DNA from: an uncultured Alphaproteobacteria bacterium
GTDB lineage: Bacteria; Pseudomonadota; Alphaproteobacteria; HIMB59
Assembly (NCBI GenBank): GCA_902598275.1
Contig: CACKAZ010000009.1
Span: forward strand, 14,481 to 46,480
DNA: 32,000 nucleotides
Direction: 5' to 3'
Below the pieces are notes generated by a model. That model made no database searches. It was not told the DNA's origin and was given only the letters and a program-made list of their open reading frames with translations. Made by a program: the position numbers and the translations under genes. Position 1 is the first letter of the stretch. Every line of letters starts with the position of its first letter. This document shows, in pieces, positions 2,608-26,901 of this stretch.

Positions 2608-3354
2608 ATGGAGTTTCAGACTATCACTCTAGCAGCAGGACTAGGCTCAAGATTAAAACATCTAACTAAACAATTACCTAAAACTCTTTTAAAAGTAAAA
2701 TCAAAATCTATAATTGGACATCAGTTAGACGCTTTTCATAAAAACAAAATTTTTAAAAATATTATTATTACAGGCCACTATTCAGAAAAGTTTCCTAAGA
2801 ACAATTGTGTATATATCAAAAATAAAAATTATAAAAAAAATAATATTCTAAATTCTTTATTTTATGCAAAAAGATTTATGAATACTAATACTATAATCTC
2901 ATATTCTGATATCCTATTTACACATAAAATAATATCAGAATTAATTATTGATGATAAGGATGTTACCTTAGTAGTTGATAAAGATTGGAGTAGAAACTAT
3001 CAAGATAGACAATTACATCCTATTCAGGAGGCCGAAAAAGTATGTTTTAAGTCTGACCAAATAATAAACATAGGAAAAAAAATATCATTCGTAGATGCTA
3101 ATGCAGAGTTTACAGGGCTCTTAAAGTTATCTAAAAGAGGATGCATAATATTTAAAAAGTATTTTGAATTGGCTAAACAAAAATTTTCCAATAAAAAATT
3201 TTATGAAGCAAATGATTTTAGCAAGGCATATATAACAGACTTTATTAAATATTTAATTGATAATGGTCTAACAATTAGCTACCTGAACATAAATAGTCCT
3301 TGGATGGAAATAGACACATTGGAGGATTATTTAAAATCTCAAAATTTCTTTTAG
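2608..3354 (+). CDS. LicC/PntC-like nucleotidyltransferase (candidate phosphonate or phospho-headgroup cytidylyltransferase)
   Basis: 248-aa ORF. N-terminal LAAGLGSRL...LPKTLL matches the G-x-G-x-R NTP-transferase loop. C-terminal WMEIDTLEDY is typical of LicC-type enzymes. It is the first gene of the plus-strand operon facing the phosphonate biosynthesis operon. Confidence 0.65.
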   Translation: MEFQTITLAAGLGSRLKHLTKQLPKTLLKVKSKSIIGHQLDAFHKNKIFKNIIITGHYSEKFPKNNCVYIKNKNYKKNNILNSLFYAKRFMNTNTIISYSDILFTHKIISELIIDDKDVTLVVDKDWSRNYQDRQLHPIQEAEKVCFKSDQIINIGKKISFVDANAEFTGLLKLSKRGCIIFKKYFELAKQKFSNKKFYEANDFSKAYITDFIKYLIDNGLTISYLNINSPWMEIDTLEDYLKSQNFF

Positions 3355-3361
3355 TAAATAA

Positions 3362-4882
3362 ATGTATTTAAAAATTAGTTTCTATATTACTAGCTTTTTT
3401 TTTACTTTTATTTATATATTTGAAGCATTTTACTTTAAAACTTATGGCATTTTCTCTAGTCTAAATGTCGGTAGATTTGTATTAAAAGATTTTTTAAGTG
3501 AATTTTCTTACATCAATAATTTAATTTCTTTTCTTTTTATATTTTCAATTTTATATTTCTTTCAAAAAAAATTGGGTCTTAAAATTAGAGACAACTTAAA
3601 AATTATAGATATTTTTTTTTTTACTTTATTTTTAATTTTTATAACAACTAATATTTTATCTCAGATACAATATCTAAAAGATATTTCTCTTTTACATGAT
3701 ATTTATAAGTTTATTTATTCAATTGTTAAAAATATTGTTATTTCTAAGTTATTACTTGTAATATTACCTTTATCTTTTTTTATAATTGCTCTTCAAAGAT
3801 TTAGTTTGCCTTTAGTTAAATTAAGAGAATTTTTTAGATATTTTATTATCTCTCTTGGTATTATCTTTATATTAGAGTCAATAATTTCTGTTATAAATCT
3901 TTATCCAAGATCCATTTATATTAATAATGATAATAATTTACATCAGGAAAAAAAAATAAATTCTAATACGGATGAACATAAAATTATATTAGTTGTATTT
4001 GATGAATGGGACTATCATGATACTTCAGATATCCTTAATACATTTCTAAGTAATTATGATAAAAAAAATTATTATTCTGGTTTTTTATCAAGTCGGTCAA
4101 CAAATACTTTTTGTTCAGTAATGCAGATACTTATGCCCGTTGATTTAGACACTAATTTATTTTGTATAATTACTAAAGATAACCAAGGAGTCCAAAATCA
4201 CAATTTAGAAATTTTTAATCAACCTAATTATTATAAAAATATTTTAAATAATTTTCATAATATTAATATTTATCATGACTACTATTTCCCTTATTGTAGA
4301 CTGGTATCATCTAATTCAAATAAGTGTTATGAAAATTCAATGAAAATAGAAAAAAAGAGTTTTTATTTTTTTACAGATAACTTGTTACAAGATTTTAAAA
4401 ATATTTTCAAATTATTCTATATTAAAACAATAGGAAAATTAATTCAAAAAGATTTAACATATAAATATTCTAATCCTGAGTTTAACTTAAACTCTAGAAA
4501 AACTCTCATAGACGATTTTTATCAAGATATTTCAAAAAAAGAAAATGGATTATTTTATTCTCACTTATTAATTCCACACATGCCTTATTTTTATGATGGC
4601 TTAAATTTCTCTAATTATGTTGGAGACTATCAAGGCAACACTATTTATTTGACTAATGTAATCAAAAATATTGAAAAATTAACTAATTTCAAAAATCAAA
4701 ATAACGTTACTTTAATTTTTACTTCAGACCATCATAATAGATACCCTGAAACTAAAAAAAAAGATGATAAAAACATCGTACCTATAATTATTTTTTCAAA
4801 AGATTTAAATAAAGATTTTAATATAAAAAGTCATTCTTCAATTAACACATTTATCAACAATTTTTCAAATATAATAAATTGA
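3362..4882 (+). CDS. membrane-anchored alkaline-phosphatase-superfamily (LtaS/EptA/sulfatase-like) transferase
   Basis: 506-aa ORF. Several N-terminal hydrophobic helices precede a soluble domain containing VVFDEWD (acidic metal site), SRSTNT (candidate Ser/Thr nucleophile) and TSDHH, which is the layout of LtaS/EptA-type enzymes. Confidence 0.5.
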   Translation: MYLKISFYITSFFFTFIYIFEAFYFKTYGIFSSLNVGRFVLKDFLSEFSYINNLISFLFIFSILYFFQKKLGLKIRDNLKIIDIFFFTLFLIFITTNILSQIQYLKDISLLHDIYKFIYSIVKNIVISKLLLVILPLSFFIIALQRFSLPLVKLREFFRYFIISLGIIFILESIISVINLYPRSIYINNDNNLHQEKKINSNTDEHKIILVVFDEWDYHDTSDILNTFLSNYDKKNYYSGFLSSRSTNTFCSVMQILMPVDLDTNLFCIITKDNQGVQNHNLEIFNQPNYYKNILNNFHNINIYHDYYFPYCRLVSSNSNKCYENSMKIEKKSFYFFTDNLLQDFKNIFKLFYIKTIGKLIQKDLTYKYSNPEFNLNSRKTLIDDFYQDISKKENGLFYSHLLIPHMPYFYDGLNFSNYVGDYQGNTIYLTNVIKNIEKLTNFKNQNNVTLIFTSDHHNRYPETKKKDDKNIVPIIIFSKDLNKDFNIKSHSSINTFINNFSNIIN

Positions 4883-5967
4883 ATAAAAATATTAAGATTA
4901 TAAATTTAGCACTGGGTTCTTATGAAGAATTTAATTTAGTTATTTACAACGAATCAAAAGAATACACTTTTATATTTGAGGATATCTGTAACCAAATTAA
5001 TTTGAAAAAATTTATATATTTATATTCAGATAAAGATGATTATTTAAACAAAAAATTATCTAGCATTCAATCTTGTAATATTGGAAATGGTATACTTAGA
5101 ACTATAATTTTAAACAACATTAAATCTAAAAAATTTCTTACAACCACTACTGATTTAAATAAGTATCAAATAAAAAAATCAAAATTCTGTAATAATTATT
5201 GTTATATATTTCACTCCTTGGTGAGTATCAATAAAGCTTATGAAGATAAGGCTTTTTATTCATATGATACTATCTTTGCACCAACTATTAACCACGCTAA
5301 TGAATTAAATAAATATAAGAATATGCATAATTTAAATATAAATATTTTAAAGGCTGGTTATCCATTAATAGACAAAATAAGTCAAATTAAATTTAAAAAT
5401 AATAACAATGATCAGATAAAGATTTTACTAGCCCCTTCTTGGGGTGATAATAATTTTTTTACTTTTGATTATGTAGAAATTCTAAAAGATATTCTTAAAG
5501 ATACTAAATATCAAATCACACTTAGACCACATCCTCATTATTATAGAAAAAATAAAAAAAAAATCTTAAAAAAATTAGAACAATTAAAAAAATTTGAAAA
5601 CTTTAAATTAAGTACAGAATATAATTTCTACGATTTAACTGAAAATGAAATATTAATTTCTGATATGTCAGGAATAACAATAGAATTTTTTTTACTCAAT
5701 AAATTAAAAATAATTTATTTAGATGACTCGTCAAAAGTTAAAAATAAAAACTTTGCCAGTATAGCCAGCATTACCTTAGAAGAAAGAATAAAAGAAAAAA
5801 TTGGTATTAAAGTAATTACGAATAATCTCAGTTCATTTCTAAAAGATTTTAATAGAAACGATTTATTGCTTGATAATCAAACAATAAATCAGACTATTAA
5901 TATAATTGGTTTATATAATTTCAAAAAATCTGCAAAATCAATTACTGATTATTTAGAAAATTATTAA
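4879..5967 (+). CDS. TagB/TagF-family CDP-alcohol phosphotransferase (CDP-glycerol glycerophosphotransferase-like)
   Basis: 362-aa ORF. Its TTG start overlaps the upstream stop (TTGA). LLAPSWGD, LRPHPHY and ILISDMSGITIEF correspond to the APTWR / HP / DYSS blocks of TagF-family enzymes. Confidence 0.6.
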   Translation: MNKNIKIINLALGSYEEFNLVIYNESKEYTFIFEDICNQINLKKFIYLYSDKDDYLNKKLSSIQSCNIGNGILRTIILNNIKSKKFLTTTTDLNKYQIKKSKFCNNYCYIFHSLVSINKAYEDKAFYSYDTIFAPTINHANELNKYKNMHNLNINILKAGYPLIDKISQIKFKNNNNDQIKILLAPSWGDNNFFTFDYVEILKDILKDTKYQITLRPHPHYYRKNKKKILKKLEQLKKFENFKLSTEYNFYDLTENEILISDMSGITIEFFLLNKLKIIYLDDSSKVKNKNFASIASITLEERIKEKIGIKVITNNLSSFLKDFNRNDLLLDNQTINQTINIIGLYNFKKSAKSITDYLENY

Positions 5968-5970
5968 ATT

Positions 5971-7095
5971 TTAATGCCATGATTTATAAATTATTTGCTT
6001 TATAATAGTCTTATTTACTGGTGCTATATTATTTAATGCTCTTTTTTTATCTAGCATTTGATCAATAAGGTTTTCTATATTTTTAAAAGTCTTTATCTTC
6101 TTTTTTACTTGAGATTTTACTTTTAAATTTTTAAGTATTATTTCTAATTTACTATCTAGACTTTTAATATTTAAATCATTTTCTAGTTCTATGAATAAAT
6201 TTTCTTTATGCGTTCTATTATATCTCATTACTTCTAGCATAGTAAAAGCGCATGCCATGCCATGATTTACAGAGTATTTAAGAGTTAATGGGTATGATAA
6301 TGAGTGGCATAATGCTGTCTTTGTAATATTAATTAAACAACCTGATAAAACACTACATTTAGATATATTTTTAAAAAATTTTTTCTCGTTACCCTCAAAA
6401 TAGCCAGAAAAGGCATTTAGTCCCATTTTGATAGCAATACTTGAATAAAATTTTGTTTTTCTAGTGGCATTTACGTTCCATATTGACTCAAATGACTGAT
6501 TTAAGGCATCAAGAGCAGAGGGTAAGAATATTTCTTTAGAGCTTAGAGAAGTTAAACTCGGATCCACAATGGCAATTTTTGGTAAGTTATTTACGCTATC
6601 ATAAGAGTATTTCTTTTTATTCTTCTTATCCCAAATTGTAGCAAATGATGTAGCCTCACTACCAGATCCACTAGTTGTTGGTAAAGCTATTATTTTTTTT
6701 GGATTAAACTTTTGTATGAGAGAATTTTTTTTAGTAAGAGCTTTTATATCAAATTCTTTTTTTCCGGAACATAACATAGCATTATAAATTTTAGTAAGAT
6801 CAATAATTGATCCACCACCTATAGCAATAAAATATCTAAAATTTTTATTGACTATTTGTTTATATATAATTTTTTTTTGGTATAAGCTGATTTCACTTGA
6901 AGGAATAATTACCTTATCTACATTTTCTAAATCAGTTAATGGTTTTAAAAATTTATCTTTTCTAATTTCATTAACACATCTTTTTGTACACACTAATAAA
7001 CATTTATAATTTTTTATATGATTAAAAATATTTTTTTTTTTATTTTTACCATAAATAATCTTAACGTTTGAAATATTTTTATAAGCAAATTTCAT
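5971..7095 (-). CDS. iron-containing alcohol dehydrogenase; by context phosphonoacetaldehyde reductase (forms 2-hydroxyethylphosphonate)
   Basis: 374-aa ORF with the Fe-ADH nucleotide motif AIGGGSIIDLTK and the His-rich metal region (LCHSLSYPL...HGMA). It is the last gene of the ppm-ppd operon, 8 nt after ppd. The family call is firm; the substrate is inferred from context. Confidence 0.7.
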   Translation of the reverse strand: MKFAYKNISNVKIIYGKNKKKNIFNHIKNYKCLLVCTKRCVNEIRKDKFLKPLTDLENVDKVIIPSSEISLYQKKIIYKQIVNKNFRYFIAIGGGSIIDLTKIYNAMLCSGKKEFDIKALTKKNSLIQKFNPKKIIALPTTSGSGSEATSFATIWDKKNKKKYSYDSVNNLPKIAIVDPSLTSLSSKEIFLPSALDALNQSFESIWNVNATRKTKFYSSIAIKMGLNAFSGYFEGNEKKFFKNISKCSVLSGCLINITKTALCHSLSYPLTLKYSVNHGMACAFTMLEVMRYNRTHKENLFIELENDLNIKSLDSKLEIILKNLKVKSQVKKKIKTFKNIENLIDQMLDKKRALNNIAPVNKTIIKQIIYKSWH

Positions 7096-7103
7096 ATAAT
7101 TGA

Positions 7104-8222
7104 TTAATCAAAATTTTTCATAAATAAACTTTTACTAACTTTCAAAGGGAGAGATGGCCTTAAGAGCTTTCCTGAACTTCCTTTTTTTGTGAGAACTTCT
7201 ATAAATACAGAGCTTTTAACTTTATTAAGATTTTTCAAAAAAAATTCTAATTTTTTTTTATTATCTATTCTTATTGCTTTTTTATACCCACATGCTTTTG
7301 CTATATTAGATAGTTTTAAAGATTTTGCAGCGTTTTCTTGTCCACCAACGGAATCATGAACACCATTATTTATAACAATATGAACTAAATTATTAATTTT
7401 AGATGTACCTATATTAGTTAATGAACCCATATGCATTATCATAGACCCGTCTCCATCAATACACAAAAACCTCTTTTTACTTCCAAGACACATACCAAGA
7501 GTTAGGCTAGAAGCATACCCCATAGCGCCTACATTAAGAAAATATCTTTGTTTAATAGTATTTTCAGTCTCAATATTAATTAGTTCTCTTGATGTATAGC
7601 CAGTTGTTGCAATAATTGGTAAATCTTTATTTACATATTTGATAATACTTTTAATAACTTCCTTTCTGCTCATCAATTTATAATCTTTTTTAATCCTATC
7701 TACTTTTTCTTTAACTAAAAATGAGTCCCTCTCAATTAAAAAAGCAACTGATTTTTTTTTATTTTGGTTTAATTCAAAACCTTTTTTAAATTTTAATTTA
7801 TTTTTATAACTATTTTTTTTTATAATAAAATATGGCATATCAATAATTTTAAGTAAATCTTCAGTCTTTTTTCCTTGAGGTCTATGTTGAGGTTCATCTT
7901 TTTTATTTTTGTCCCCTCTCCATCCAATTATAAATATCATAGGTATTTCATAGATATCTTTGTGAATTAATGAAAGCACAGGATTAATTATATTGCCCAA
8001 CCCAGCATTTTGTAAGTAGACAACTGGTGTCTTTTTAGTTGTTAAATAATATCCTGCGGCAATTCCTACTGCACTACCCTCATTAGATGCAATTAAATTT
8101 TGAAATTTGTTAATATCGACTAAATTTGAAAAATGTTTTAGAACTGAGTCAGGTACCCCAGTAAAAAAATTAATTTTATATTTATTAATTTCTTCGAAAA
8201 GAATATTCAAATTTTTATTCAT
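7104..8222 (-). CDS. ppd: phosphonopyruvate decarboxylase (ThDP-dependent)
   Basis: 372-aa ORF. N-terminal FFTGVPDS, and the ThDP motif GDGSMIMHMGSL...INNG. Its size and its position immediately downstream of PEP mutase fit Ppd/AepY. Confidence 0.85.
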   Translation of the reverse strand: MNKNLNILFEEINKYKINFFTGVPDSVLKHFSNLVDINKFQNLIASNEGSAVGIAAGYYLTTKKTPVVYLQNAGLGNIINPVLSLIHKDIYEIPMIFIIGWRGDKNKKDEPQHRPQGKKTEDLLKIIDMPYFIIKKNSYKNKLKFKKGFELNQNKKKSVAFLIERDSFLVKEKVDRIKKDYKLMSRKEVIKSIIKYVNKDLPIIATTGYTSRELINIETENTIKQRYFLNVGAMGYASSLTLGMCLGSKKRFLCIDGDGSMIMHMGSLTNIGTSKINNLVHIVINNGVHDSVGGQENAAKSLKLSNIAKACGYKKAIRIDNKKKLEFFLKNLNKVKSSVFIEVLTKKGSSGKLLRPSLPLKVSKSLFMKNFD

Positions 8223-8227
8223 TTAAT

Positions 8228-9523
8228 TTAGTTTATTAACTTAATAATTTTTTTTATTGAACTTATATTTTTATCAGCCTCATAAGCTCTACCATTCTTT
8301 AGAATTTGAGAAGCTGTTTCTTCCATGGCTTTGTGAGCAGATCTCAAAAGTTGATTAGCATAAATAACTATATTAGCACCACCAAAGAAAAGTTCCCTCT
8401 CTCTGGTAGAAGAATATGTAGATGGAACCACCATTACGATTGAGTCCTCACTAAACTTTCTAAATTTTTTTAGAAAATCTAAAATTTCTTTAGAATCCTT
8501 TTTTTTACTATGTATAAATATTCCATCTGCACCAGATTTAACATAATTTTTAGATCGTCGTATTGCGTCTTTCATACCGTTTCCTAGTATTAAGCTTTCA
8601 ATTCTTGCAAAAACCATAAAATCTTTTGAAATTCTCGAGTTACAGGCAACTTCAATTTTTTTTGAAAAATTTTTAACAGTATCTTGGAGTGATTTAGACT
8701 GATCAGCAAATAAAGAGTTTATTTTTAATCCAGTTTTATCCTCTAAAACTACTGCTGATACACCCGACTTTTCAAGAGATTTTACAAGATAGGGCAAGTG
8801 CTCAATTTTTCCACCATTATCGGCATCAAATATTATTGGTTTAGATGATATGTTTGTAATTTCATTTAAACCGTTAATTCTTATTGAATAATCTACAGAT
8901 TGATTATCTGGCATAGCCCTAATAGTGGAGTCTGTGAGACTAGAGGACCATAAAAGATCAAATGCTTTAGTTTTATTTTTTTCTTTTAATTTTGTGTTCT
9001 CAATAATATGAGCGCTCATTCCATTATGGGCCTCAATGCCAATCAAATTTTGTCTTAAGACAAGCATTCTTTTTAGTAACGACACTCTTGATGATATTGA
9101 AAGGTTTAAATCTATTTTATCTTTTATAAGTTTTCTTGAAATATTTGATGTGAATGGGACTTCAATAAGTTTGCCACCCCAAGATTTCATCTCATTAATG
9201 ACAAACTTTCTAACTTGAGATAGATTACCTTTTTTCCAATCATCACCATGCACAAAGTAATCAGGTTTTATCTTCTTTAATGTTTGTTTATAATCCCAGT
9301 CATCTTGCTTTATAATTTGACTAATTCCAGATAATTTAGATACTAAATTATATCTTTCATTGTAACTTAAAATTGGAAATTCTCTGTATTGACTGATGGC
9401 TTTGTCAGATAGTAATCCAATAATCACATCTCCATACTTTCTTGCATGTTTTATAATATTTAGGTGACCTGAATGAACTATATCAGACGCCAGAGGAACA
9501 TATGATATTTTTTTTAAAACCAT
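8228..9523 (-). CDS. ppm: cytidylyltransferase (HxGH, TagD-like) :: phosphoenolpyruvate phosphomutase fusion
   Basis: 431-aa ORF. Residues ~1-130 carry DIVHSGHLNII (HxGH) and TSNISRK, the cytidylyltransferase-like fold. The C-terminal ~290 aa carry the PEP-mutase-specific VVLEDKTGLKINS (EDKxxxxxNS) plus ARIES and GADGIFIHSKK. Confidence 0.88.
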   Translation of the reverse strand: MVLKKISYVPLASDIVHSGHLNIIKHARKYGDVIIGLLSDKAISQYREFPILSYNERYNLVSKLSGISQIIKQDDWDYKQTLKKIKPDYFVHGDDWKKGNLSQVRKFVINEMKSWGGKLIEVPFTSNISRKLIKDKIDLNLSISSRVSLLKRMLVLRQNLIGIEAHNGMSAHIIENTKLKEKNKTKAFDLLWSSSLTDSTIRAMPDNQSVDYSIRINGLNEITNISSKPIIFDADNGGKIEHLPYLVKSLEKSGVSAVVLEDKTGLKINSLFADQSKSLQDTVKNFSKKIEVACNSRISKDFMVFARIESLILGNGMKDAIRRSKNYVKSGADGIFIHSKKKDSKEILDFLKKFRKFSEDSIVMVVPSTYSSTRERELFFGGANIVIYANQLLRSAHKAMEETASQILKNGRAYEADKNISSIKKIIKLIN

Positions 9524-10812
9524 TGGCTAGTATCAGACTCTATTCTAAGAATATCTTTGGGTTTCATTTGTGATATTTGTATTTTAATATCACCAGATAT
9601 TTTATTATCAATTCTTAAGATAAGAAACTTACTACCAACTTTGGGAAAACTATGTTTTACAAAAGGTTTAATATAAATAGTCTCCATATAACTCATTTTA
9701 ATTTTTTTTGAATTGATAGAAATTGAAGAAGAGTCCACAAGTGCATAAATATATTGGTGTGATGAAATACTAAAAAATTTATTATTTTTTTTTACTACTT
9801 CTAATTCAAGACCTTTTGAGGAAGGAACATTTGGAGAAGATGCAAGAAAAAATAATTTGAAAATTTGACTTTTTAAATTTGGAAAGAAATATTTTTGATA
9901 ATTTATCTTCTTTAAAACAACAACTTCAGTTTCCTTTTTGACTGAAAGAATCTCTCTAATATTAACATTTAAAAAATCTGATATTTTTATCAAATCATTA
10001 ATACTGAAGTCTATTTTGCCCTGAATTTTATTATCATAATCCTTTATAGATACTCTCTCTCTGAGATTATCTTTGCTTAAAGACATATTGTCTAAAAAAT
10101 TTAATATTTGATTATGTGAATTAGAATAATTAGACACCTTCTTAAGGTAATTTTTATCTTTCAAGGAAGATAAATTTAATAATTCTTTTTGTGTTTCAAA
10201 GTTTATTTTATCTTCAAAAGTTACAGCTACTATGTAAGAAATTCCTTTCTTACTTCTTGTTGTAAATGAGTGAGGTACATAAGGTGGAATATAGCAACTA
10301 TCACCAGATTTCATTTTTGATAATGTTTTTTTTCCATTCTTTAAATAGTAAAAATTAACATCTCCAACAAAATATGTGAACTGATGGAGTAAGTGACCTT
10401 TGTTCCAGGCAACTAATTTATTATCTGGTTTATCATCTTTAGTATAGCATAGAGTTCTTATCCATTCTGGCTTATATGGAGCATTTCTTTCAGTAGCTGT
10501 ATCTTTGTATTCATAATAATCAAGACCATTACGCTGCATAAGTCGCGCTGATTTATTGCTAATATTATTCTTTATATAAATAAATTCTGAGTCATTGATT
10601 TGGGGGTTAATTAAATCAGAAATTTTAATTGGCCAAATCTTCGACATTGAATTTATAATTTCGAGTGTTATTGGTTTTTTGCCATTTAAAATTTTTTCAA
10701 ATTCTTTTTGAGATAAATTTAATTCTTTAGCAGCATCCTTGTCTCTTCTTTTAATATCGTTAAGTATCTGTTTGAGCCTAACGTTAGAAAATACGTTATT
10801 TTTTTTTGACAT
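9514..10812 (-). CDS. mpnS: 2-hydroxyethylphosphonate oxygenase of the HEPD/MpnS bicupin family; residue pattern favours methylphosphonate synthase
   Basis: 432-aa ORF built as a tandem [helical XRE-like domain + cupin] duplication (YIPPYVPHSF vs YIKPFVKHSF). The first cupin has H140-x3-Q144...H181, with F154 and I175. It overlaps the ppm start by 10 nt (ATGGTTTTAA). See finding 1. Confidence 0.65.
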   Translation of the reverse strand: MSKKNNVFSNVRLKQILNDIKRRDKDAAKELNLSQKEFEKILNGKKPITLEIINSMSKIWPIKISDLINPQINDSEFIYIKNNISNKSARLMQRNGLDYYEYKDTATERNAPYKPEWIRTLCYTKDDKPDNKLVAWNKGHLLHQFTYFVGDVNFYYLKNGKKTLSKMKSGDSCYIPPYVPHSFTTRSKKGISYIVAVTFEDKINFETQKELLNLSSLKDKNYLKKVSNYSNSHNQILNFLDNMSLSKDNLRERVSIKDYDNKIQGKIDFSINDLIKISDFLNVNIREILSVKKETEVVVLKKINYQKYFFPNLKSQIFKLFFLASSPNVPSSKGLELEVVKKNNKFFSISSHQYIYALVDSSSISINSKKIKMSYMETIYIKPFVKHSFPKVGSKFLILRIDNKISGDIKIQISQMKPKDILRIESDTSQWF

Positions 10813-11026
10813 TCTTTTTGTTCAAATTTTTTTTGAAAATTTTATTATAAATATTGATTATTTTATGTTTAATTACAATTAATGAAGCTATGCCAGATGC
10901 TATCAAAACACCAATCATAGAAAAAAGTCCTCCTGGTTCTATATATGCAAATGCATTTTTTGAAAAAACACAACCCAAAGACAAAATGAGTAATAAATTT
11001 TTAAAAACTATTATAATTTTAAACAT
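10796..11026 (-). CDS. small hydrophobic/polybasic membrane protein (76 aa; alternative 40-aa product from internal ATG at 10918)
   Basis: The ORF opens the phosphonate operon and overlaps the mpnS start by 17 nt. It has a signal-like N-terminus (LLLILSLGCVFSKNAFA), a second hydrophobic helix (LFSMIGVLIASGIASLIVI) and a Lys-rich tail. I recognise no family. Confidence 0.4.
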   Translation of the reverse strand: MFKIIIVFKNLLLILSLGCVFSKNAFAYIEPGGLFSMIGVLIASGIASLIVIKHKIINIYNKIFKKNLNKKNVKKK

Positions 11027-11088: not shown

Positions 11089-11165
<77 letters not shown>

Positions 11166-11222: not shown

Positions 11223-13034
11223 ATGTTTTTTTTTCCAATATTGTTATCTCAGCTATTGCTAGTAATTTTTTTTTTATATAGTTTTTCAAAAAAATTTTTA
11301 ATAATTTTTGATTTTAAAAATATCATTTTACTTTTCATTCCTTTAATTTTAATAATTAGTTCAGGTTTTCGTTTTTATGGATATTCAATTTATGATGATA
11401 TATTATTAATTTTTTTAACCTTATATATACTTGTAAATTATTCAAAAATAAAAATTAAATTTTCCTTAAATGATAAATTAATTATTACTCTTTTATTAAT
11501 ACTATTGCTGCATTCATTTTTTGGTCTATACACTTATAAAGAAATAAAAATTATTATTTATCCTGCGTACTTTGTTGGATTAATTTCACTATTGTGCTTT
11601 CTTAAAATTAACAAAATTAATTATGAGGAAAAAAAAGCACTTTTATATTTTGATATCGTAGTCATTTATTTTCTTATACTAACAGTTTCTACTCTTTACC
11701 TAGATTTCACTCCAATTTTATTTGAAGATTTTATAAGTTACGTCAATAATGATAGATGTCTGGGTCTTTATGATGAAGCATTATCTAGACATAAGCATTT
11801 TCATCAATGCTTGCAAAATGTATTAACATCTGGATCAACATTATCTATTTTACCAATAATATTTGGCTACCTCCTTATTTATAGTAATTTTCATAAACAA
11901 AAAATAAGAACAATCATTCTAATTTTTTTATTTATTTCTTATACTGATATTACTAATAGCGAGGCAGGGCACTTAATAATAATTTTCAGTAGTATATTAA
12001 TTTTGATATTAAAAAATTTTAAATTCCAATTTATTGTTATTAACCTTATATCAATATTTTTGTTTTTATTATTCAGTTCAGCGAATCTATATATCAAACA
12101 TAAAGTTTTATCTGAGAATCTACAGATCAAACATAGTGTTTTAAATGATAATAAATTACTAGAAAACGTCTTTGATAAACAAAGTAAAAGATTTAATTAC
12201 TCAAATAATTACTTTAATCACATCAATAAAAAGACACTCAATGATGTAAATCATATGCTTGCGGATAAAAATTATATTGATCAATTCAAAATTAATAATT
12301 ATGGCGACCCTGAGCTTTTAGAAATAATAACAATCATAGAGAAAAATATAAAACTTCTTGATTCATATAATAGAGATATTCTCAATTTAATGTACCAAGA
12401 TGTAAATGAGGATAGATCAAAATACCCCATATCAAATTATGAATATAAATATCTTGACCTAAAAAAATATTTTGGTTCAGGTGATACTATAAGAATTTCA
12501 ACAGGTTCTATAGGCTCCAGATTAAGGGATATTATTATATTACTTGACACTAAAATCACTAATACTGAAAAATTATTCGGGAATGGCATTTATTCATCAA
12601 GATATAAACTTCCTAAACAAATTGAATTCTCAGATATGAATTTATCTCTTTTCATTGGTAAAGAAATAAATGATTATGGTGTTGGGTATTCATTAAAAAA
12701 AATTTATAGCCAAGGTCATAAAATTCTAACCTTCGGTGAGAATATGGTAGTTTACAGTAATGCATACGATCAAATACCCACAATGATTTTTTTTTCAAAA
12801 TTTATTTATGATTTTGGGTTAATTGCTTTTGCTATTTTCCTTTTCATAATCTTTATTAATATTTTTAAAGTTTACAAAGAATATATTTTTAAAGATTTTA
12901 TTTTTTTAACTTATATTTTATTATTAATATGTTCTTGGTCATTTTTAACAGATTTAACAAATAATCTTGTATTTTACGCCTTACTATTTTATTCATATAT
13001 TATTAAATTTTTCATAAAAAATAAACTTAGTTGA
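11223..13034 (+). CDS. polytopic membrane protein, possibly Wzy/O-antigen-ligase-like polymerase with a large extracytoplasmic loop
   Basis: 603-aa ORF with ~9 hydrophobic helices in residues 1-290, a ~230-aa hydrophilic insert, then 2-3 C-terminal helices. Weak resemblance to Wzy_C blocks (GSRLRDI...FGNGIYSS). The function is a guess from topology and context. Confidence 0.35.
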   Translation: MFFFPILLSQLLLVIFFLYSFSKKFLIIFDFKNIILLFIPLILIISSGFRFYGYSIYDDILLIFLTLYILVNYSKIKIKFSLNDKLIITLLLILLLHSFFGLYTYKEIKIIIYPAYFVGLISLLCFLKINKINYEEKKALLYFDIVVIYFLILTVSTLYLDFTPILFEDFISYVNNDRCLGLYDEALSRHKHFHQCLQNVLTSGSTLSILPIIFGYLLIYSNFHKQKIRTIILIFLFISYTDITNSEAGHLIIIFSSILILILKNFKFQFIVINLISIFLFLLFSSANLYIKHKVLSENLQIKHSVLNDNKLLENVFDKQSKRFNYSNNYFNHINKKTLNDVNHMLADKNYIDQFKINNYGDPELLEIITIIEKNIKLLDSYNRDILNLMYQDVNEDRSKYPISNYEYKYLDLKKYFGSGDTIRISTGSIGSRLRDIIILLDTKITNTEKLFGNGIYSSRYKLPKQIEFSDMNLSLFIGKEINDYGVGYSLKKIYSQGHKILTFGENMVVYSNAYDQIPTMIFFSKFIYDFGLIAFAIFLFIIFINIFKVYKEYIFKDFIFLTYILLLICSWSFLTDLTNNLVFYALLFYSYIIKFFIKNKLS

Positions 13035-13945
13035 TGAAAACATTTTATGTTCATGTAGGGTTACCAAAGGCTTTTAGCACCTCAATACAAAACTATATTT
13101 TTAAAGTTGAAAATCAATTTAAAGACTTTCTTTTTATAAATGATACTTTTGTTTCAAATGAAGTGTCTAAATATTATAAGTCACTCAAAAATAGTATTTA
13201 CGGTTATGGCGGAGTAGCTATTTATGATTATAAAAAACTTAATAAAATTGAGATTCAAAATTTTAAAGAAAAAATAAATAAAATTGCTTACAATAAAATT
13301 ATAATATCTGATGAGTCACTATTTGGTAATCCATATACTGATTATAATGACAGACAAAATATAATTAAAAATATCAAATCTTTATTCGATGGAGAGATAA
13401 AAATTTTGATTTCTTTAAGAAATCAAAAAAAATGGTCTAAATCATTTTTTAATACTTCTATTCAACAGGGTACAAGCAAAAGTTATAAAAAATTTATTGA
13501 TAAAGCTGGTCACCTCTCAATTAATTTAAAAGAGATGAATTTATCAAATCACATTAAGGATTTTAGTATTAATTTTGGTAAAGAAAATACTACAGTTACT
13601 TTTTGCGAAAAACAGATAGAAGAATTTAAAAATGATATAGATAATTTTTTTGGTTTTAAAAATAGTGAAATTCAATTTCCACGAAAAAATATCTCTTTTA
13701 ATAAACATTATCACACAGGAAGATTAATTATTAACAAGCTCATTAATCAAAAAATTTGTCAATTTTTCAATAATTTTAGGATTATATATTATATAAGTGT
13801 TTTTTTAGGCTATTTTATTGATTTATTAAAATTATATAAAGAGGATTACTCCATTCCTAATCAGACTGCTAATCAACTAAATGATTATAATAAACATCTT
13901 TTTAAAGACTTAGATTCTAAGGTATCAAAAAACTATATATTTTAG
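13034..13945 (+). CDS. sulfotransferase-like protein
   Basis: ~303 aa from ATG 13034 (TGATG overlap with the upstream stop; the track begins at TTG 13031). HVGLPKAFSTSIQ resembles the 5'-PSB loop (PKxGTT). ISLRNQKKWSKSFF resembles the 3'-PB motif (RNPxDRxxS). Confidence 0.4.
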   Translation: MKTFYVHVGLPKAFSTSIQNYIFKVENQFKDFLFINDTFVSNEVSKYYKSLKNSIYGYGGVAIYDYKKLNKIEIQNFKEKINKIAYNKIIISDESLFGNPYTDYNDRQNIIKNIKSLFDGEIKILISLRNQKKWSKSFFNTSIQQGTSKSYKKFIDKAGHLSINLKEMNLSNHIKDFSINFGKENTTVTFCEKQIEEFKNDIDNFFGFKNSEIQFPRKNISFNKHYHTGRLIINKLINQKICQFFNNFRIIYYISVFLGYFIDLLKLYKEDYSIPNQTANQLNDYNKHLFKDLDSKVSKNYIF

Positions 13946-14228: not shown

Positions 14229-15726
<1,498 letters not shown>

Positions 15727-15819
15727 AGGAAAAAAAACTTTGAACTAAGTGTACGTTTAAAGTAACCACCGTCTATTTGTTTTGCTTTTTTCAACTAAAG
15801 TTGATAAAGGGCATCGATT

Positions 15820-15896
15820 GGGCGTGTAGCTCAGTTGGTTAGAGCGCGCGCTTGATAAGCGTGAGGTCGGAGGTTCAAGTCCTCCCTCGCCCACCA
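15820..15896 (+). tRNA. tRNA-Ile (anticodon GAU)
   Basis: GGGCGTGTAGCTCAGTTGGTTAGAGCGCGCGCTTGATAAGCGTGAGGTCGGAGGTTCAAGTCCTCCCTCGCCCACCA is a classical spacer tRNA-Ile, colinear with the E. coli ileT type. Confidence 0.95.
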
Positions 15897-15904
15897 ACAC
15901 TGTT

Positions 15905-15980
15905 GGGGGATTAGCTCAGCTGGGAGAGCGCCTGATTTGCATTCAGGAGGTCAGCGGTTCGATCCCGCTATCCTCCACCA
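15905..15980 (+). tRNA. tRNA-Ala (anticodon UGC)
   Basis: GGGGGATTAGCTCAGCTGGGAGAGCGCCTGATTTGCATTCAGGAGGTCAGCGGTTCGATCCCGCTATCCTCCACCA. The G3:U70 alanine identity pair is present. Confidence 0.95.
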
Positions 15981-16017
15981 ACTTTTTTAAAATCGTAAAT
16001 ATGTAAGCTGATAACAC

Positions 16018-16056
16018 AGACGAATAACTTGCACGAGTTGTTCGTCAATTTAACAA
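16018..16056 (+). promoter_or_regulatory. spacer hairpin (boxB-like) followed by a second boxA-like element
   Basis: GACGAATAACT-TGCACG-AGTTGTTCGTC forms a 10/11-bp stem. It is immediately followed by CAATTTAACAA, which resembles the boxA core CTCTTTAACAA at 9 of 11 positions. Confidence 0.4.
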
Positions 16057-16118
16057 CTAATATAACAACAAATAACTACAAAAAGTTATTAACAACAAAC
16101 TTTTCACTGTGTGTTAAT

Positions 16119-18838
<2,720 letters not shown>

Positions 18839-18879
18839 AATACACAGCGAAAAGTTTTAACTATATGTTATAAAAAGTT

Positions 18880-18992
18880 TGTGGCGGTCATAGCGGAGTG
18901 AAAAAACCCGATCCCATTTCGAACTCGGTCGTGAAGGCCTCCAGCGCCGATGGTACTAAGTCTTAAGGCTTGGGAGAGTAGGACGCCGCCTG
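18880..18992 (+). rRNA. rrf: 5S ribosomal RNA
   Basis: GTGGCGGTCATAGCGGAGTG...CCCATTTCGAACTCGGTCGTGAA...GCGCCGATGGTACT...GGGAGAGTAGGACGCCGCC is colinear with bacterial 5S. It lies only ~41 nt after 23S. Ends are +/- 3 nt. Confidence 0.93.
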
Positions 18993-19039
18993 TTTATTTT
19001 CTCACATATTTATTTTTTTTTATTTTTTGTCGCATATTA

Positions 19040-19056: not shown

Positions 19057-19821
19057 ATGGTTTCAATTAATTCTAAACAGAGAGCTAACGAGACAGAAAA
19101 AGAATACTCAAAAAGTATTGAAGATTATTTATTTGAGCATAATGGAAAAAAACTTGAGCAATTAAATGTTGATTGTTTTCCAAACTTTACCACTACAAAT
19201 TTAATAAGAAAATTATTTGTAAGATATGAACTATACAGAAAAACTTTTAAAATTCATGGTGATATCTTCGAGTGTGGAGTAGGTTATGGTCCAGGTTTTT
19301 TTTCTTGGCTGCATTTGAAAAATATTTTTGAACCATATAATCACCTCAGAAAAATAGTCGGTTTTGACACATTTGAGGGCTTTGAAAAGATATCGGATCA
19401 AGATAAATCAAGTTTACATAATGATGACCTAATAGAAAAAGGTCTCAAAGCAGATGTTTTTAATAAGCTTTTAAATTTATTAAGTATGAAATCAAAATTA
19501 TATCCTAATCCCCACTTAGAACAGGCCTTTTTAATTAAAGGCGATATAATACAAACACTTGATCAATATCTTGAAAAAAATTCCCAAACAATTGTCTCAT
19601 TATTATTCCTAGATTTTGATCTTTATGAACCTACTCTCCATGTTTTAAATAGAGTCGTTCCTTTGATGTCAAAGGGAGCAATTATAGCTTTTGATCAGAT
19701 TAACCATGATTTTTGGCCAGGTGAGTCTGTCGCAGTAAAAGATTATTTTGGAAAAAATTTTGGAGATATTGAAATTAAAAGGTTAGATATATCAGGGACA
19801 ACTTCATATATAGAAATTTAA
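19057..19821 (+). CDS. TylF/MycF-family SAM-dependent (sugar) O-methyltransferase
   Basis: 254-aa ORF. GDIFECGVGYG, VGFDTFEGF and LLFLDFDLYEPT...LMSKGAIIAFDQ match the TylF-family blocks (G.ivEcGvwrG, DsFeG, lD.DlYeST...GG.i..DDY). Confidence 0.7.
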   Translation: MVSINSKQRANETEKEYSKSIEDYLFEHNGKKLEQLNVDCFPNFTTTNLIRKLFVRYELYRKTFKIHGDIFECGVGYGPGFFSWLHLKNIFEPYNHLRKIVGFDTFEGFEKISDQDKSSLHNDDLIEKGLKADVFNKLLNLLSMKSKLYPNPHLEQAFLIKGDIIQTLDQYLEKNSQTIVSLLFLDFDLYEPTLHVLNRVVPLMSKGAIIAFDQINHDFWPGESVAVKDYFGKNFGDIEIKRLDISGTTSYIEI

Positions 19822-20753
19822 TCTTTTGTGTTTACTTCTTCATCAACAATGACTTGATTTAAATTTTGATTTTGAGAGTAAACTCTATTTAAATATTCAC
19901 CAATCACTCCCAACATTATTGCATTAATGCCCATAGATATTAATATTAAGCATACTAATGTTGCAAAACCAGAAACTTCGATTCCAAAATAAAATCTCTC
20001 AAATAAGTAATATAAAATCAAACAAAAAGAAGACATTGTTATAAATATTCCTAAATAAAGAATGAATCTTAATGGTATTGAGGAATATTGCGTTATGCCT
20101 GTAAATGCAAAGTCAATATATGAAAATAAATTAAATTTCGATTTTCCAGCTTTTCTTTTTTCTCTTGTGTATTCAATGCCCTTTTGTTTAAATCCTATTT
20201 TTGCAATCGCACCTCTTATATACAAATCGTTAATATTATTCTTGAGTAGAAATGTAATAATCTTTCTTGAAACAAGCCTGAAATCTCCTGCATTTACAGG
20301 TATAGAATTATTGCTCATTTTGAATAATAAAAAGTAAAATATCTTTATCAAAATATTTATTATAAAACCATCACTTCTATTTTTTCTTACACCATAAACT
20401 ACTTCATAACCATTCTCCCATTCAGCTATGAATAATTTAAAAAGCTTTGGGCTATCTTGTAAATCACAATCAATTTGAATAACAGCATCTCCTTTAGCTA
20501 CAGAGTATCCATACATCAGTGAGTTTTGAATACCAAAATTATTTGAATATCTATAAGCTCTGACATTAGAGTCCTTTTTACAAATAACTTTTATTTTATT
20601 AAAGGTATCATCAAGACTTCTGTTATCTAGAAAGATTATTTCATAGTCATATAGTTCTAAATTATTTAGTTCTCTCTTCACTTCTTCATAACATTTTAAA
20701 ATATTTTCACTCTCATTAAATGTTGGTATTAATATTGATATAATTTTTTTCAT
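19818..20753 (-). CDS. GT2 polyprenyl-phosphate glycosyltransferase (GtrB/ArnC/DPM1-like, two C-terminal TM helices)
   Basis: 311-aa ORF. ILIPTFNESENI, FLDNRSLDDT and IQIDCDLQD form the GT2 catalytic core. The C-terminus has two hydrophobic helices, as in GtrB/ArnC. Confidence 0.8.
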   Translation of the reverse strand: MKKIISILIPTFNESENILKCYEEVKRELNNLELYDYEIIFLDNRSLDDTFNKIKVICKKDSNVRAYRYSNNFGIQNSLMYGYSVAKGDAVIQIDCDLQDSPKLFKLFIAEWENGYEVVYGVRKNRSDGFIINILIKIFYFLLFKMSNNSIPVNAGDFRLVSRKIITFLLKNNINDLYIRGAIAKIGFKQKGIEYTREKRKAGKSKFNLFSYIDFAFTGITQYSSIPLRFILYLGIFITMSSFCLILYYLFERFYFGIEVSGFATLVCLILISMGINAIMLGVIGEYLNRVYSQNQNLNQVIVDEEVNTKD

Positions 20754-21754
20754 AATATTTTAGAAATTTGAAAAACAGATTTTTTAAATATATCACCATT
20801 AGAGTAATATGTCTTATACCAATCTACTGTATCTTTAATGCTTTGTTTAAAGCTAAAAGTATTTTGATATTTAATTTTTTTTCTAATATAAGTCGAGTTT
20901 ATTCTAAGATGAAGATCTTCTGAAACATAATTCTTTTCAAAAGTCCAATTTATATTAATGTGAGGTTTAATTCTTTCTATTATTTCTTTTATAGAATAAC
21001 TTTTAAATTTTGAAGAAAAATTTATTGCATCATGATCAAATTTAATTTTATTTTCATAAATTATATTTGTAACAATTATTAAAAAGTTTAAAAGTTCAAG
21101 AATATATGTCCATGGTCTAGTGCTATTTATAGACCTTATCTTTAACTTTTTATTATTTGAATAAGATTCAAATAGGTCAAAGAAAAATCTATTTGTATTA
21201 AAGTCACCTCCGCCATATAAATTACCACATCTAATATTAAGAATTTTTAAATTATAAAGTTTCTTATAGTTCATAGAAAGTAAGTCTGACATTATTTTTG
21301 TGGTACCATAAATAGTGTTACTTCCAAAATTAGATTTTTCATTATGACTTTTATTTTTATTTTCGTATACTTTATCTGATGTAAAATTAATCAGATTAAT
21401 ATGTTTATTTTTTTTTATATACTCTAAAACATTTAAAATAGATAGAGTATTATTTTTGACTGAAACATCTGGAAAAGTATTACAAAAATGAACTAAAGAA
21501 TGAGCAGCTAAATTTATGATAATATCAGGTTTAAAATCATTCAGCACAGTAAATAAATTTTTTCTATTAGTAATATCTATATACTTAAATTTTATTTTAT
21601 TTTTTATTTTATTATGAAATTTATTTTTTTTTTCATTTAAACCAATTCCAAGATATTTATGATTTGTCTGAGAAAAATAAAGGCAAATCCAACTACCGAC
21701 AAAACCTGTAGCTCCAAGTACAACAATTTTTGAATTTTTAAATTTTTTACTCAT
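20750..21754 (-). CDS. rfbG: CDP-glucose 4,6-dehydratase family SDR
   Basis: VVLGATGFVGSWICLYF, FTSDKVY, YGTTK (YxxxK), RCGNLYGGGDF and TRPWTYILE parallel Salmonella RfbG (VTGHTGFKGSWL, ITSDKCY, RAGNVIGGGDW, IRPWQHVLEP). I prefer ATG 21754 (ATGAGTAA overlap with the rfbF stop) over the track start at 21787. Confidence 0.72.
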   Translation of the reverse strand: MSKKFKNSKIVVLGATGFVGSWICLYFSQTNHKYLGIGLNEKKNKFHNKIKNKIKFKYIDITNRKNLFTVLNDFKPDIIINLAAHSLVHFCNTFPDVSVKNNTLSILNVLEYIKKNKHINLINFTSDKVYENKNKSHNEKSNFGSNTIYGTTKIMSDLLSMNYKKLYNLKILNIRCGNLYGGGDFNTNRFFFDLFESYSNNKKLKIRSINSTRPWTYILELLNFLIIVTNIIYENKIKFDHDAINFSSKFKSYSIKEIIERIKPHININWTFEKNYVSEDLHLRINSTYIRKKIKYQNTFSFKQSIKDTVDWYKTYYSNGDIFKKSVFQISKIL

Positions 21755-22466
21755 AAATTGTCCATGGACTAATTTTGTAATCTTCAAGTATATTTTTATC
21801 TCTTATCGTATCACAAGGATGCCAAAAACCATTATGTTTGTAAGCATTTAATTGTTTATTTTGGCTTAATAAAGGTAGTGTATATTTTTCAAAAGATAAG
21901 TCTTTATTTGAAGGAAAATAATTAAGTAATTTTTTTCTATCTGCAACAAAGAAACCACCGTTTATCCATGAGTTTTTATTTACAAATTTTTCTGAAAATT
22001 TAGTCACTAAATTTTTATTATTTAGAACCATTGCACCAAATCTGGCAGGTGGATGCACAGCTGTCACAGTAACAGCTTTTTTTGATTTAATATGTGAATT
22101 TACAACTTTTTTAATATTCACATTAGATAGCCCATCGCCATAAGTAATCATTATTTGTTCATCATCTATTTTGTTAAGAATCTTTTTTATTCTACCACCA
22201 GTCGTCGTTCTTAGACCCGTGGGCTCAACAGAGATAACTAATTTTTTTTTTTTATTTATTTGTTTGAGGTTTTTAACATATTTATTTATAAGTTCACCTT
22301 TATAACCAGTAAGAATTATAAATTCATTAAATAAATAATTGGTATAGTGGTTAATAATATGCCCTAGTAGTGGAATTTTATTTATTTTAACTAAGGGTTT
22401 TGGTTTTTTAATTGTTTCTTCACTCAATCTTGTACCTAGACCACCAGCTAATATTAATACCTTCAT
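21747..22466 (-). CDS. rfbF: glucose-1-phosphate cytidylyltransferase
   Basis: 239-aa ORF. MKVLILAGGLGTRLSEETIKKPKPLV... and the C-terminal GFWHPCDTIRDKNILE match RfbF (ILAGGLGTRISEET..KPKPMV; GFWQPMDTLRDK). Confidence 0.85.
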   Translation of the reverse strand: MKVLILAGGLGTRLSEETIKKPKPLVKINKIPLLGHIINHYTNYLFNEFIILTGYKGELINKYVKNLKQINKKKKLVISVEPTGLRTTTGGRIKKILNKIDDEQIMITYGDGLSNVNIKKVVNSHIKSKKAVTVTAVHPPARFGAMVLNNKNLVTKFSEKFVNKNSWINGGFFVADRKKLLNYFPSNKDLSFEKYTLPLLSQNKQLNAYKHNGFWHPCDTIRDKNILEDYKISPWTIYE

Positions 22467-22475
22467 TTTATTTAT

Positions 22476-24421: not shown

Positions 24422-24425
24422 TTTT

Positions 24426-24441
24426 ATTTAAATATTTAAAT
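24426..24441. repeat. perfect 16-bp palindrome ATTTAAATATTTAAAT in a 50-bp divergent intergenic region
   Basis: Read directly; the sequence equals its own reverse complement. It sits between start 24421 (minus) and start 24472 (plus). Confidence 0.6.
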
Positions 24442-24471
24442 TTTAGACTAAGGTATCGATTTTAAACAATT

Positions 24472-26899: not shown

Positions 26900-26901
26900 A
26901 T

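Follow-up and report, generated by a model that had tools for sequence, protein, structure and literature searches.

Oxic surface waters of the sea are supersaturated with methane, much of which, by the accepted view, comes from methylphosphonate (MPn) esters on dissolved marine polysaccharide; to our knowledge, the enzymes that attach MPn to polymers have never been identified. Esters of both MPn and 2-hydroxyethylphosphonate (2-HEP, hereafter HEP) were reported on marine polysaccharides, together with nucleotidyltransferase and sulfatase-like genes as neighbors of mpnS (PMC9381506). It was proposed that mpnS neighborhoods encode MPn esters by way of nucleotidyltransferases, sulfatase-like and LicD-type genes (Lockwood 2022, PMC9381506) and, according to the summary given there, Metcalf 2012 had already proposed that the mpnS neighborhood yields MPn esters on surface polymers. 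Nucleotidyl activation of phosphonates before transfer, as CMP-phosphonates, was described by Rice et al. 2019 (PMC6697681); the cytidylyltransferase (CyTase) domain of Fom1 makes CMP-HEP and is specific for HEP (PMC6697681). A related logic is found in Campylobacter, where Cj1418, Cj1417 and Cj1416 make the CDP-phosphoramidate donor of O-methyl phosphoramidate (MeOPN) (PMC11800397, PMC3907429). Here, a stretch of 32,000 nucleotides from an uncultured low-GC marine alphaproteobacterium was analyzed (GenBank assembly GCA_902598275.1, contig CACKAZ010000009.1, positions 14,481 to 46,480 of the forward strand; hereafter the window). At positions 2608-11026 it harbors a block of genes that an earlier reading of the sequence (the original prediction) described as a self-contained phosphonate module. 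We consider it probable that this block is an MPn head-group cassette joined to a general transfer machinery for small phosphorus head groups.

Results

Organization of the block and predicted methylphosphonate synthesis

The block consists of two convergent operons for which nine open reading frames (ORFs) were counted, eight of them listed here with coordinates. The plus strand carries a PntC/LicC-like nucleotidyltransferase (NT) gene, a gene for a membrane protein of the alkaline phosphatase (AP) superfamily and a tagF-like gene, while the minus strand carries the phosphonate genes and a gene for a small peptide. Within each operon the genes are spaced by at most 8 nt or overlap by 4-17 nt. 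The last plus-strand stop codon, TAA at 5965-5967, and the facing minus-strand stop codon (TTA as read on the plus strand) at 5971-5973 leave a gap of 3 nt, as the original prediction had it, and two related metagenome contigs with ~85% DNA identity, L082 and L083, have preserved this junction. The layout of the module is real and conserved.

The four phosphonate genes on the minus strand, encoding Ppm, Ppd, Fe-ADH and MpnS, are predicted with good support to form a full MPn pathway. The phosphoenolpyruvate (PEP) mutase domain of Ppm (residues ~147-430 of the ORF at 8228-9523) matched the TIGR02320 equivalog with 336.3 bits (cut-off 319.55) and holds the sequence EDKTGLKINS at residue 261, which fits the EDKx5NS motif of PEP mutases. 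For phosphonopyruvate decarboxylase (Ppd; 7104-8222, 372 aa), which has TPP_enzyme_N and TPP_enzyme_C domains, the TIGR03297 equivalog scored 391.1 bits against a cut-off of 312.5. The 374-aa Fe-ADH (5971-7095) carries the Pfam domains PF00465 (Fe-ADH) and PF25137 (ADH_Fe_C), and its best NCBIfam match was TIGR03405 (Phn_Fe-ADH) with 188.7 bits, below the cut-off of 423.7. Its proposed role as phosphonoacetaldehyde reductase follows from its position in the operon and from the presence of such a gene in 68 of 80 mpnS loci (all counts of mpnS loci refer to these 80, taken from GTDB species representatives). In the otherwise complete module of contig L082 the Ppd ORF (L082:1703-2728) encodes 341 aa, and close to its 3' end a stretch of ~60 nt interrupts the DNA alignment with the window; this Ppd may be truncated or decaying.

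The oxygenase of the operon (9514-10812, 432 aa) was compared with methylphosphonate synthase (MPnS) and with the related HEPD. It aligned with N. maritimus MPnS (PDB 6b9s) with E=1.7e-75 and 258 bits, and with HEPD (6b9r) with E=2.1e-53 and 185 bits. Work by Born et al. from 2017 is said to describe MPnS as having a 2-His-1-Gln iron site whose Gln is held by a Phe/Ile pair, with Tyr/Gly in HEPD. In our alignment H140, Q144, F154, I175 and H181 correspond to H148, Q152, F162, I184 and H190 of the N. maritimus enzyme, and the aligned HEPD has Tyr and Gly where the window protein has Phe and Ile. All five residues are invariant among 16 homologues. This supports the assignment made in the original prediction: the oxygenase is of the MpnS type, not a HEPD, and is predicted to convert HEP to MPn. 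The protein is divergent, its best full-length homologues being 47-49% identical and the thaumarchaeal enzymes 37-39%.

No aminotransferase domain was found in any ORF of the module by Pfam and NCBIfam scans, as originally noted. The other domain assignments of the original prediction likewise hold; for the membrane protein and, as a putative assignment, the TagF-like protein, direct matches were too weak and profile and fold evidence was needed.

Predicted nucleotidyl activation

The first plus-strand gene (2608-3354) encodes a 248-aa NT with the Pfam domains PF00483 (NTP_transferase) and PF12804 (NTP_transf_3). Its best PDB matches were the PntC-AEPT fusion of T. denticola (6pd1, E=6.5e-10) and LicC of S. 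pneumoniae (1jyk, E=2.9e-9), and the N-terminal NTP-binding loop GxG(S/T)R is present as LAAGLGSRL. The original prediction had asked whether the plus-strand genes co-occur with mpnS, and for this gene they do: NT relatives were detected in 50 of the 80 mpnS loci, in 36 of these 50 fused or adjacent (≤200 nt) to mpnS. In ten loci NT and MpnS form a single ORF, and both parts were confirmed by Pfam in the five that were scanned. These fusions (L018, L023, L025, L028, L031, L033, L048, L070, L076 and L079, each around position 10001) occur in metagenome-assembled genomes of Chloroflexota, Limnocylindria, Planctomycetota and Vampirovibrionales.

A second nucleotidyltransferase is fused to the PEP mutase. 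The N-terminal domain of Ppm (residues 5-132) aligned with the Fom1 CyTase (5x3d, E=2.3e-34) and holds an HxGH motif, HSGH, at residue 17. At least one nucleotidyltransferase, either LicC-like NT or Fom1-like CyTase, was found in 63 of the 64 mpnS loci that hold Ppm, which makes nucleotidyl activation all but obligatory in MPn clusters and carries the conclusion of Rice et al. 2019 (PMC6697681) over to mpnS. For the window, we propose from the sequence that NT makes CMP-MPn or CMP-HEP.

Candidate transfer proteins

The last plus-strand gene (4879-5967) encodes a divergent 362-aa protein, a putative member of the TagF (Glyphos_transf) family by the evidence of its relatives. PF04464 was matched by 10 of 16 aligned family members (best E=3e-16), and the homologue in contig L081, which is 82% identical, was pre-annotated with PF04464. 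When the profile of the 16 sequences was searched against the PDB, no match was obtained, including none to a TagF structure. The TagF-like gene is present in 25 of the 80 mpnS loci, where the expected background is very low, so that the co-occurrence with mpnS holds for this gene too, and it is enriched beside Ppm as well.

A small ORF at 10796-11026 on the minus strand encodes a 76-aa membrane peptide with a hydrophobic N-terminus, an AYIEPGG motif, a transmembrane (TM) helix and a basic tail. The original prediction had counted it as a member of the biosynthesis operon. The peptide was first tied to TagF by a TagF-like ORF in locus L154 that starts with a sequence homologous to it. An iterated HMM search then retrieved a peptide family of ~50-90 aa in 72 loci, whose members combine a hydrophobic N-terminus and a TM helix with the motif AYAY[IL]DPG[ST]GS and a basic tail of the form K[IL]YWxK; examples among loci L086-L164 are L115:1386-1580 and L154:1042-2322. 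In 45 of 79 metagenome loci recruited with TagF the peptide lies within 300 nt of the TagF-like gene or is fused to it, and in four loci (L024, L113, L148 and L154) it forms the N-terminus of the TagF-like protein. Among the mpnS loci, presence of the peptide tracks presence of the TagF-like gene (counts 12/13/2/53, Fisher p=5e-6). By these fusions and adjacencies the peptide is a putative partner of the TagF-like enzyme, more than just the leading gene of the biosynthesis operon, and we propose that it anchors the enzyme. The family is widespread and apparently undescribed; no model in Pfam or NCBIfam matched it.

The second plus-strand gene (3362-4882) encodes a 506-aa protein that is a near-orphan. 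It had three close homologues in a set of 5.8 billion proteins. When 1.84 billion representatives were searched exhaustively by profile, one further clear relative emerged and eight weak ones, the latter being PF00884 (Sulfatase) members of the same length with hydrophobic N-terminal regions. Across 12 aligned sequences, including true PF00884 members, D214, E215, T249, H401, H406, D456 and H457 are invariant, and the motifs follow the order of the AP superfamily, with metal-binding Asp/Glu and Asp-His, a Thr nucleophile and a conserved His. The profile matched sulfatases, LtaS-type lipoteichoic acid synthases and primases, and phosphonate monoester hydrolases in the PDB. AlphaFold modeling gave a pLDDT of 33 from a 3-sequence alignment and of 57, with the core at 76-92, from the 12-sequence alignment; in the AF2 model ~5-6 N-terminal TM helices spanning residues 2-193 precede an AP-superfamily ectodomain. 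A Foldseek search with the 12-sequence model placed EptC (6a82) on top (E=3e-5) and also returned sulfatases, PbgA/YejM, LtaS, MCR-1 and BcsG. Because the CxPxR motif is lacking (no C/S-x-P-x-R was found, and the aligned nucleophile region reads STNTFCSVMQ), the protein is not a formylglycine sulfatase, and its Thr nucleophile and TM domain place it among the EptA/LtaS-type phosphotransferases. In a BLAST-level search it was found in none of the 80 mpnS loci; its relatives surfaced by profile search only. Locus L078 is an independent case in which mpnS and NT stand together with a TagF-like gene and a gene for a membrane protein of sulfatase-like type.

Loci lacking phosphonate genes

In a reverse test, TagF-like relatives in metagenomes were used as the starting point, and the 36 loci of at least 6 kb were counted. 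The peptide was found in 27 of them; 24 hold NT, 23 encode a sulfatase-like membrane protein and 19 have at least one phosphonate gene. The remaining 17 lack a phosphonate gene, and most of these carry a phosphoramidate-type cassette; as metagenome contigs are short, absence of phosphonate genes from them is weak evidence. The plus-strand genes, which the original prediction had expected to be tied to ppm, thus occur in part apart from it.

The 17 phosphonate-free loci often show a fixed order: a PPDK_N/PEP-utilizer (glutamine-kinase-like) gene, a class-I amidotransferase, NT, the TagF-like gene and the sulfatase-like membrane protein. The kinase-like protein matched NCBIfam PRK05849 with 777-975 bits, and the sole NCBIfam match of the amidotransferase was gamma-glutamyl-CDP-amidate hydrolase. 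Phosphonate and glutamine-kinase cassettes occurred in 117 and 14 loci, respectively, and in no locus together; glutamine kinase and CDP-amidate hydrolase were absent from all 117 phosphonate loci and, by Pfam and NCBIfam, from the window. The NTs divide by cassette: scored against the window NT, those of phosphonate loci have a median of 142 bits and those of glutamine-kinase loci one of 56 bits. Examples of MeOPN-like loci are L093:6227-12450, L153:361-9591, L161:6151-15360 and L102:393-4296. Judged by gene content, the phosphonate-free loci would follow the logic of Campylobacter Cj1418/Cj1417/Cj1416. MeOPN-type phosphoramidate decoration is known mainly from Campylobacter capsules. The loci found here suggest that phosphoramidate decoration of glycans may be common among marine bacteria.

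Close relatives of the window carry natural variants of the block. The full module is present in L082, L083 and L084 (Ppm at least 90% identical). Three contigs from other samples (L081, L085, P0122 contig) retain the genes for the membrane enzyme and the TagF-like protein, but in them a 212-aa SAM methyltransferase (L081:6800-7438, L085:1951-2589, and also in the P0122 contig) replaces the four phosphonate genes. The peptide gene is retained in L081 and L085, both of which are without mpnS. The methyltransferase region of L081 has a GC content of 0.32-0.38 versus about 0.2. Beside the methyltransferase gene, L081 still holds remnants of Fe-ADH (~75 nt, from the 3' end), mpnS (~70 nt, from the 5' end) and the NT gene (its first ~52 nt). 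It follows that the ancestor of L081 possessed the complete module and that NT and the phosphonate operon disappeared jointly; among the three methyltransferase-variant contigs, NT loss was checked in L081 only. Since L081 and L082 are very close (TagF-like protein 96% identical at the amino acid level, dS 0.085), the cassette swap was recent. Homologous methyltransferases also adjoin TagF-like genes in L106 and L163. As the transfer genes also occur without phosphonate genes, and are intact in the three contigs in which a methyltransferase replaces the phosphonate operon, "self-contained" and "complete system", as the block had been called, overstate the case.

Genomic setting and source organism

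The module is sandwiched by two non-identical tRNA-Met genes with CAT anticodons, both on the plus strand. The left boundary is an elongator-type tRNA at 2489-2565 (ARAGORN and Rfam), and the right one a tRNA with an initiator-like 5' CGCGGGG at 11089-11165 (ARAGORN and sequence). In L081 and L082 the module follows an initiator-like tRNA-Met that matches the latter with 100% identity, whereas in the window it follows the elongator tRNA-Met; along with this, a large membrane protein changes sides. In L082 the tRNA genes lie at 7307-7383 and 9670-9746. A search for att-like sites or direct repeats flanking the module gave AT-rich noise only, and an integrase was likewise not found. In this AT-rich DNA the scans for promoter-like sites (61 versus 68.9 expected) and terminator-like sites (2 versus 1.5 expected) were uninformative.

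To the right of the module lie a 603-aa protein with many TM segments (window 11223-13034) and a 304-aa ORF (13031-13945), neither with a family match. Divergent homologues of the 603-aa protein (701 aa in L081, 533 aa in L082) always adjoin the module between the tRNA genes, and the protein could be a glycan polymerase, a ligase or related to the acceptor. An rRNA operon in the order 16S-tRNAIle-tRNAAla-23S-5S follows at 14229-18994, with the 5S gene directly after the 23S gene; outside it the window has a GC content of ~21-31%. Beyond it a surface-glycan cluster (19818-29596) encodes a PgfS/ArnC-like GT2, CDP-glucose 4,6-dehydratase, glucose-1-phosphate cytidylyltransferase, epimerases, a heptose-kinase-like GHMP kinase, a split transketolase pair (26902-28640) and a GDP-fucose-synthase-like reductase. 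Glycan-synthesis genes flank the rRNA operon on both sides.

The source is an uncultured low-GC marine alphaproteobacterium. The original prediction implied SAR11, an attribution that found no support and was dropped, as four SAR11 FISH probe sequences failed to match the 16S gene of the window. In a GTDB scan, the best MpnS of Pelagibacteraceae was 41% identical to that of the window. In ENA marine metagenomes, housekeeping proteins with 97% identity to those of the window occur in very large numbers (one cluster has 1120 members).

Discussion

The gene content of the window suggests the following mechanism, whose biosynthetic steps are supported by family-level tests and whose activation and transfer steps we infer from the genes. 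PEP would be converted to phosphonopyruvate by Ppm, to phosphonoacetaldehyde by Ppd, to HEP by Fe-ADH and to MPn by MpnS. The PntC/LicC-like NT would activate the phosphonate as a CMP conjugate, and the Fom1-like CyTase fused to Ppm could do likewise with HEP as substrate. With the 76-aa peptide holding it at the membrane, the TagF-family enzyme would then move the methylphosphonyl group from the CMP donor to a glycan- or lipid-linked hydroxyl, releasing CMP and yielding an MPn ester. Finally, the outward-facing EptA/LtaS-like enzyme would either relay the head group from a lipid carrier to the final surface polymer or perform a second, periplasmic transfer; a lipid-carrier relay and two independent transfers are both possibilities. 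A glycan as target fits the surface-glycan cluster past the rRNA operon (19-30 kb) and the enrichment of epimerases, glycosyltransferases and NeuB around mpnS. The logic of making, activating and attaching a phosphonate, as originally proposed, therefore fits the evidence, with biosynthesis and activation being well-supported predictions; the attachment step is more conjectural, and the transfer genes appear to be general-purpose.

Several observations weigh against such a linked system. The window TagF-like protein has no direct Pfam (E≤0.01) or PDB match, and the model of the membrane enzyme is of moderate quality, with an overall pLDDT of 57 and Foldseek TM-scores of 0.3-0.4. No TagF-like gene lies within 10 kb in 55 of the 80 mpnS loci, and the TagF-like enzyme is therefore not the universal MPn transferase. 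In addition, the genes retained in L081 are intact and under purifying selection (dN/dS 0.15-0.30); being constrained without phosphonate genes nearby, the transfer genes must be able to use another donor.

The strongest competing explanation, which we nevertheless regard as unlikely, is that two unrelated neighbors meet in a variable island. The transfer genes would then serve an ordinary phosphate polymer of teichoic-like or phosphoglycerol type and MPn would go elsewhere, the phosphonate operon and NT having come to lie by chance between the TagF-like gene and its peptide gene. The three contigs that keep constrained transfer genes after loss of the phosphonate operon (and, in L081, of NT) speak for it, as do the phosphonate-free share of the longer TagF-like loci and the hot-spot character of the region, in which the position of the module relative to the tRNA genes differs between the window and L082. 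It is opposed by the strong enrichment of the TagF-like gene beside mpnS and beside Ppm and by the conserved 3-nt convergent junction. Moreover, gene order is fixed in the phosphonate-free loci, where the transfer set comes immediately downstream of a different CMP/CDP-head-group pathway, which suggests that the set accepts whichever activated head group is supplied. We prefer an MPn cassette joined to general transfer machinery. Most likely, the transfer genes accept whichever CMP- or CDP-activated small phosphorus head group the neighboring cassette supplies, which in the window is probably MPn and perhaps HEP too.

It is also conceivable, but improbable, that HEP, or HEP together with MPn, is the group transferred, with the CyTase making CMP-HEP and NT making CMP-MPn to feed the TagF-like and EptA-like transferases. 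The window does hold two nucleotidyltransferases and two candidate transferases, both types of nucleotidyltransferase occur together in 16 mpnS loci, the Fom1 CyTase is specific for HEP (PMC6697681) and marine polysaccharides bear esters of both MPn and HEP (PMC9381506). However, NT was found in 30 of 31 loci with unfused Ppm versus 16 of 33 with CyTase-fused Ppm (Fisher p=1.3e-5), so that the two types tend to replace each other across mpnS loci, which suggests that they do the same job. The idea that two nucleotidyltransferases mean two head groups was down-weighted for this substitution.

EptA- and LtaS-type enzymes take lipid donors, and profile matches of the membrane protein include phosphonate monoester hydrolases. 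Even so, there is little chance that the pathway ends in a phosphonolipid or in a small molecule that is released, in which case the AP-superfamily protein would have lipid head groups as its substrates or serve as a hydrolase: no CDP-alcohol phosphatidyltransferase was found in the window by Pfam and NCBIfam, glycan-synthesis genes lie on both sides of the rRNA operon, mpnS neighborhoods are rich in sugar epimerases, glycosyltransferases and NeuB, and marine MPn was found esterified to polysaccharide (PMC9381506). In about ten mpnS loci, mostly archaeal (L012, L027, L030, L034, L035, L040, L043 and other archaeal/DPANN loci), a CDP-alcohol phosphatidyltransferase takes the place of TagF-like genes, which hints at MPn- or HEP-containing lipids in these lineages and speaks for phosphonolipids.

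Beyond the window, we tentatively raise the idea of a conserved marine head-group transfer machine made of a divergent TagF-family enzyme, a peptide of ~65 aa and an EptA/LtaS-like enzyme, and served by interchangeable cassettes for MPn, an MeOPN-type phosphoramidate or a methyltransferase-dependent group. If this is true, the window is the MPn version and holds the enzymes that esterify MPn onto the polysaccharides behind aerobic marine methane, and the methyltransferase variant is a natural head-group switch inside one population. The attachment idea itself is not new: MPn esters made by way of adjoining nucleotidyltransferase and sulfatase-like genes were already published (PMC9381506, citing Metcalf 2012). 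In the literature searched, the recurrent unit of TagF-like protein, peptide and EptA-like protein, its sharing with a phosphoramidate pathway and a cassette swap within a population were not found, and the shared transfer set with swappable cassettes appears to be new. The module and its relatives narrow the search for MPn attachment to a few candidates amenable to cloning: one or two cytidylyltransferases, a TagF-family enzyme with its peptide and an EptA-like membrane enzyme. Natural controls are available in sister contigs whose phosphonate cassette has been exchanged and in distant loci that use the transfer genes for a phosphoramidate pathway.

Comparison with known systems

To LtaS/EptA/BcsG the membrane protein of the window is homologous at the family level, through the AP fold with its metal and nucleophile motifs, and to TagF/TarF the TagF-like protein is putatively so, through the transitive PF04464 matches. 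The kind of chemistry would be the same, a phospho-head group being moved from a CDP- or lipid-linked donor to a polymer. In contrast to the teichoic acid TagF/LtaS systems, the window proteins are very divergent and lack a direct Pfam match, the host is a Gram-negative-type marine alphaproteobacterium, and apart from the CyTase fused to Ppm the module has no TagD-type gene for CDP-glycerol synthesis.

The MeOPN capsule system of C. jejuni (Cj1415-Cj1418 with the transferases Cj1421 and Cj1422; PMC11800397, PMC3907429) places a cytidine-activated small phosphorus head group onto capsule sugars. The likeness lies in the marine loci that combine the window-type set of TagF-like protein, peptide and AP-superfamily membrane protein with Cj1418-like and Cj1417-like proteins and a related NT in a fixed order. 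The window itself, unlike C. jejuni, has neither glutamine kinase nor CDP-amidate hydrolase, and its head group would come from a phosphonate pathway.

With regard to activation, the window NT is nearest to PntC/LicC and the domain fused to Ppm is nearest to the Fom1 CyTase (PMC6697681). The characterized PntC enzymes prefer 2-aminoethylphosphonate (2-AEP) and go with LicD-type transferases (PMC6697681), whereas the module lacks both an aminotransferase and LicD and would use a TagF-family protein.

The closest described counterparts are the mpnS cluster of N. maritimus and the bacterial mpnS neighborhoods (PMC9381506), which have the same ppm, ppd, Fe-ADH and mpnS genes with LicC-like NT and sulfatase-family genes nearby. 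The proposed outcome for the N. maritimus cluster, MPn esters on an exopolymer, is also the same. The window MpnS shares 37-39% identity with archaeal MPnS and no more than 49% with any homologue of full length. Matches to thaumarchaeal Ppm cover the mutase domain only, whereas the window Ppm has a fused Fom1-like CyTase. The thaumarchaeal sulfatase-family proteins, of ~375 aa, are too short for the N-terminal membrane region, whereas the window protein is membrane-anchored and has a Thr nucleophile. Finally, to the gene set of the N. maritimus cluster the window adds the TagF-like enzyme and its partner peptide.

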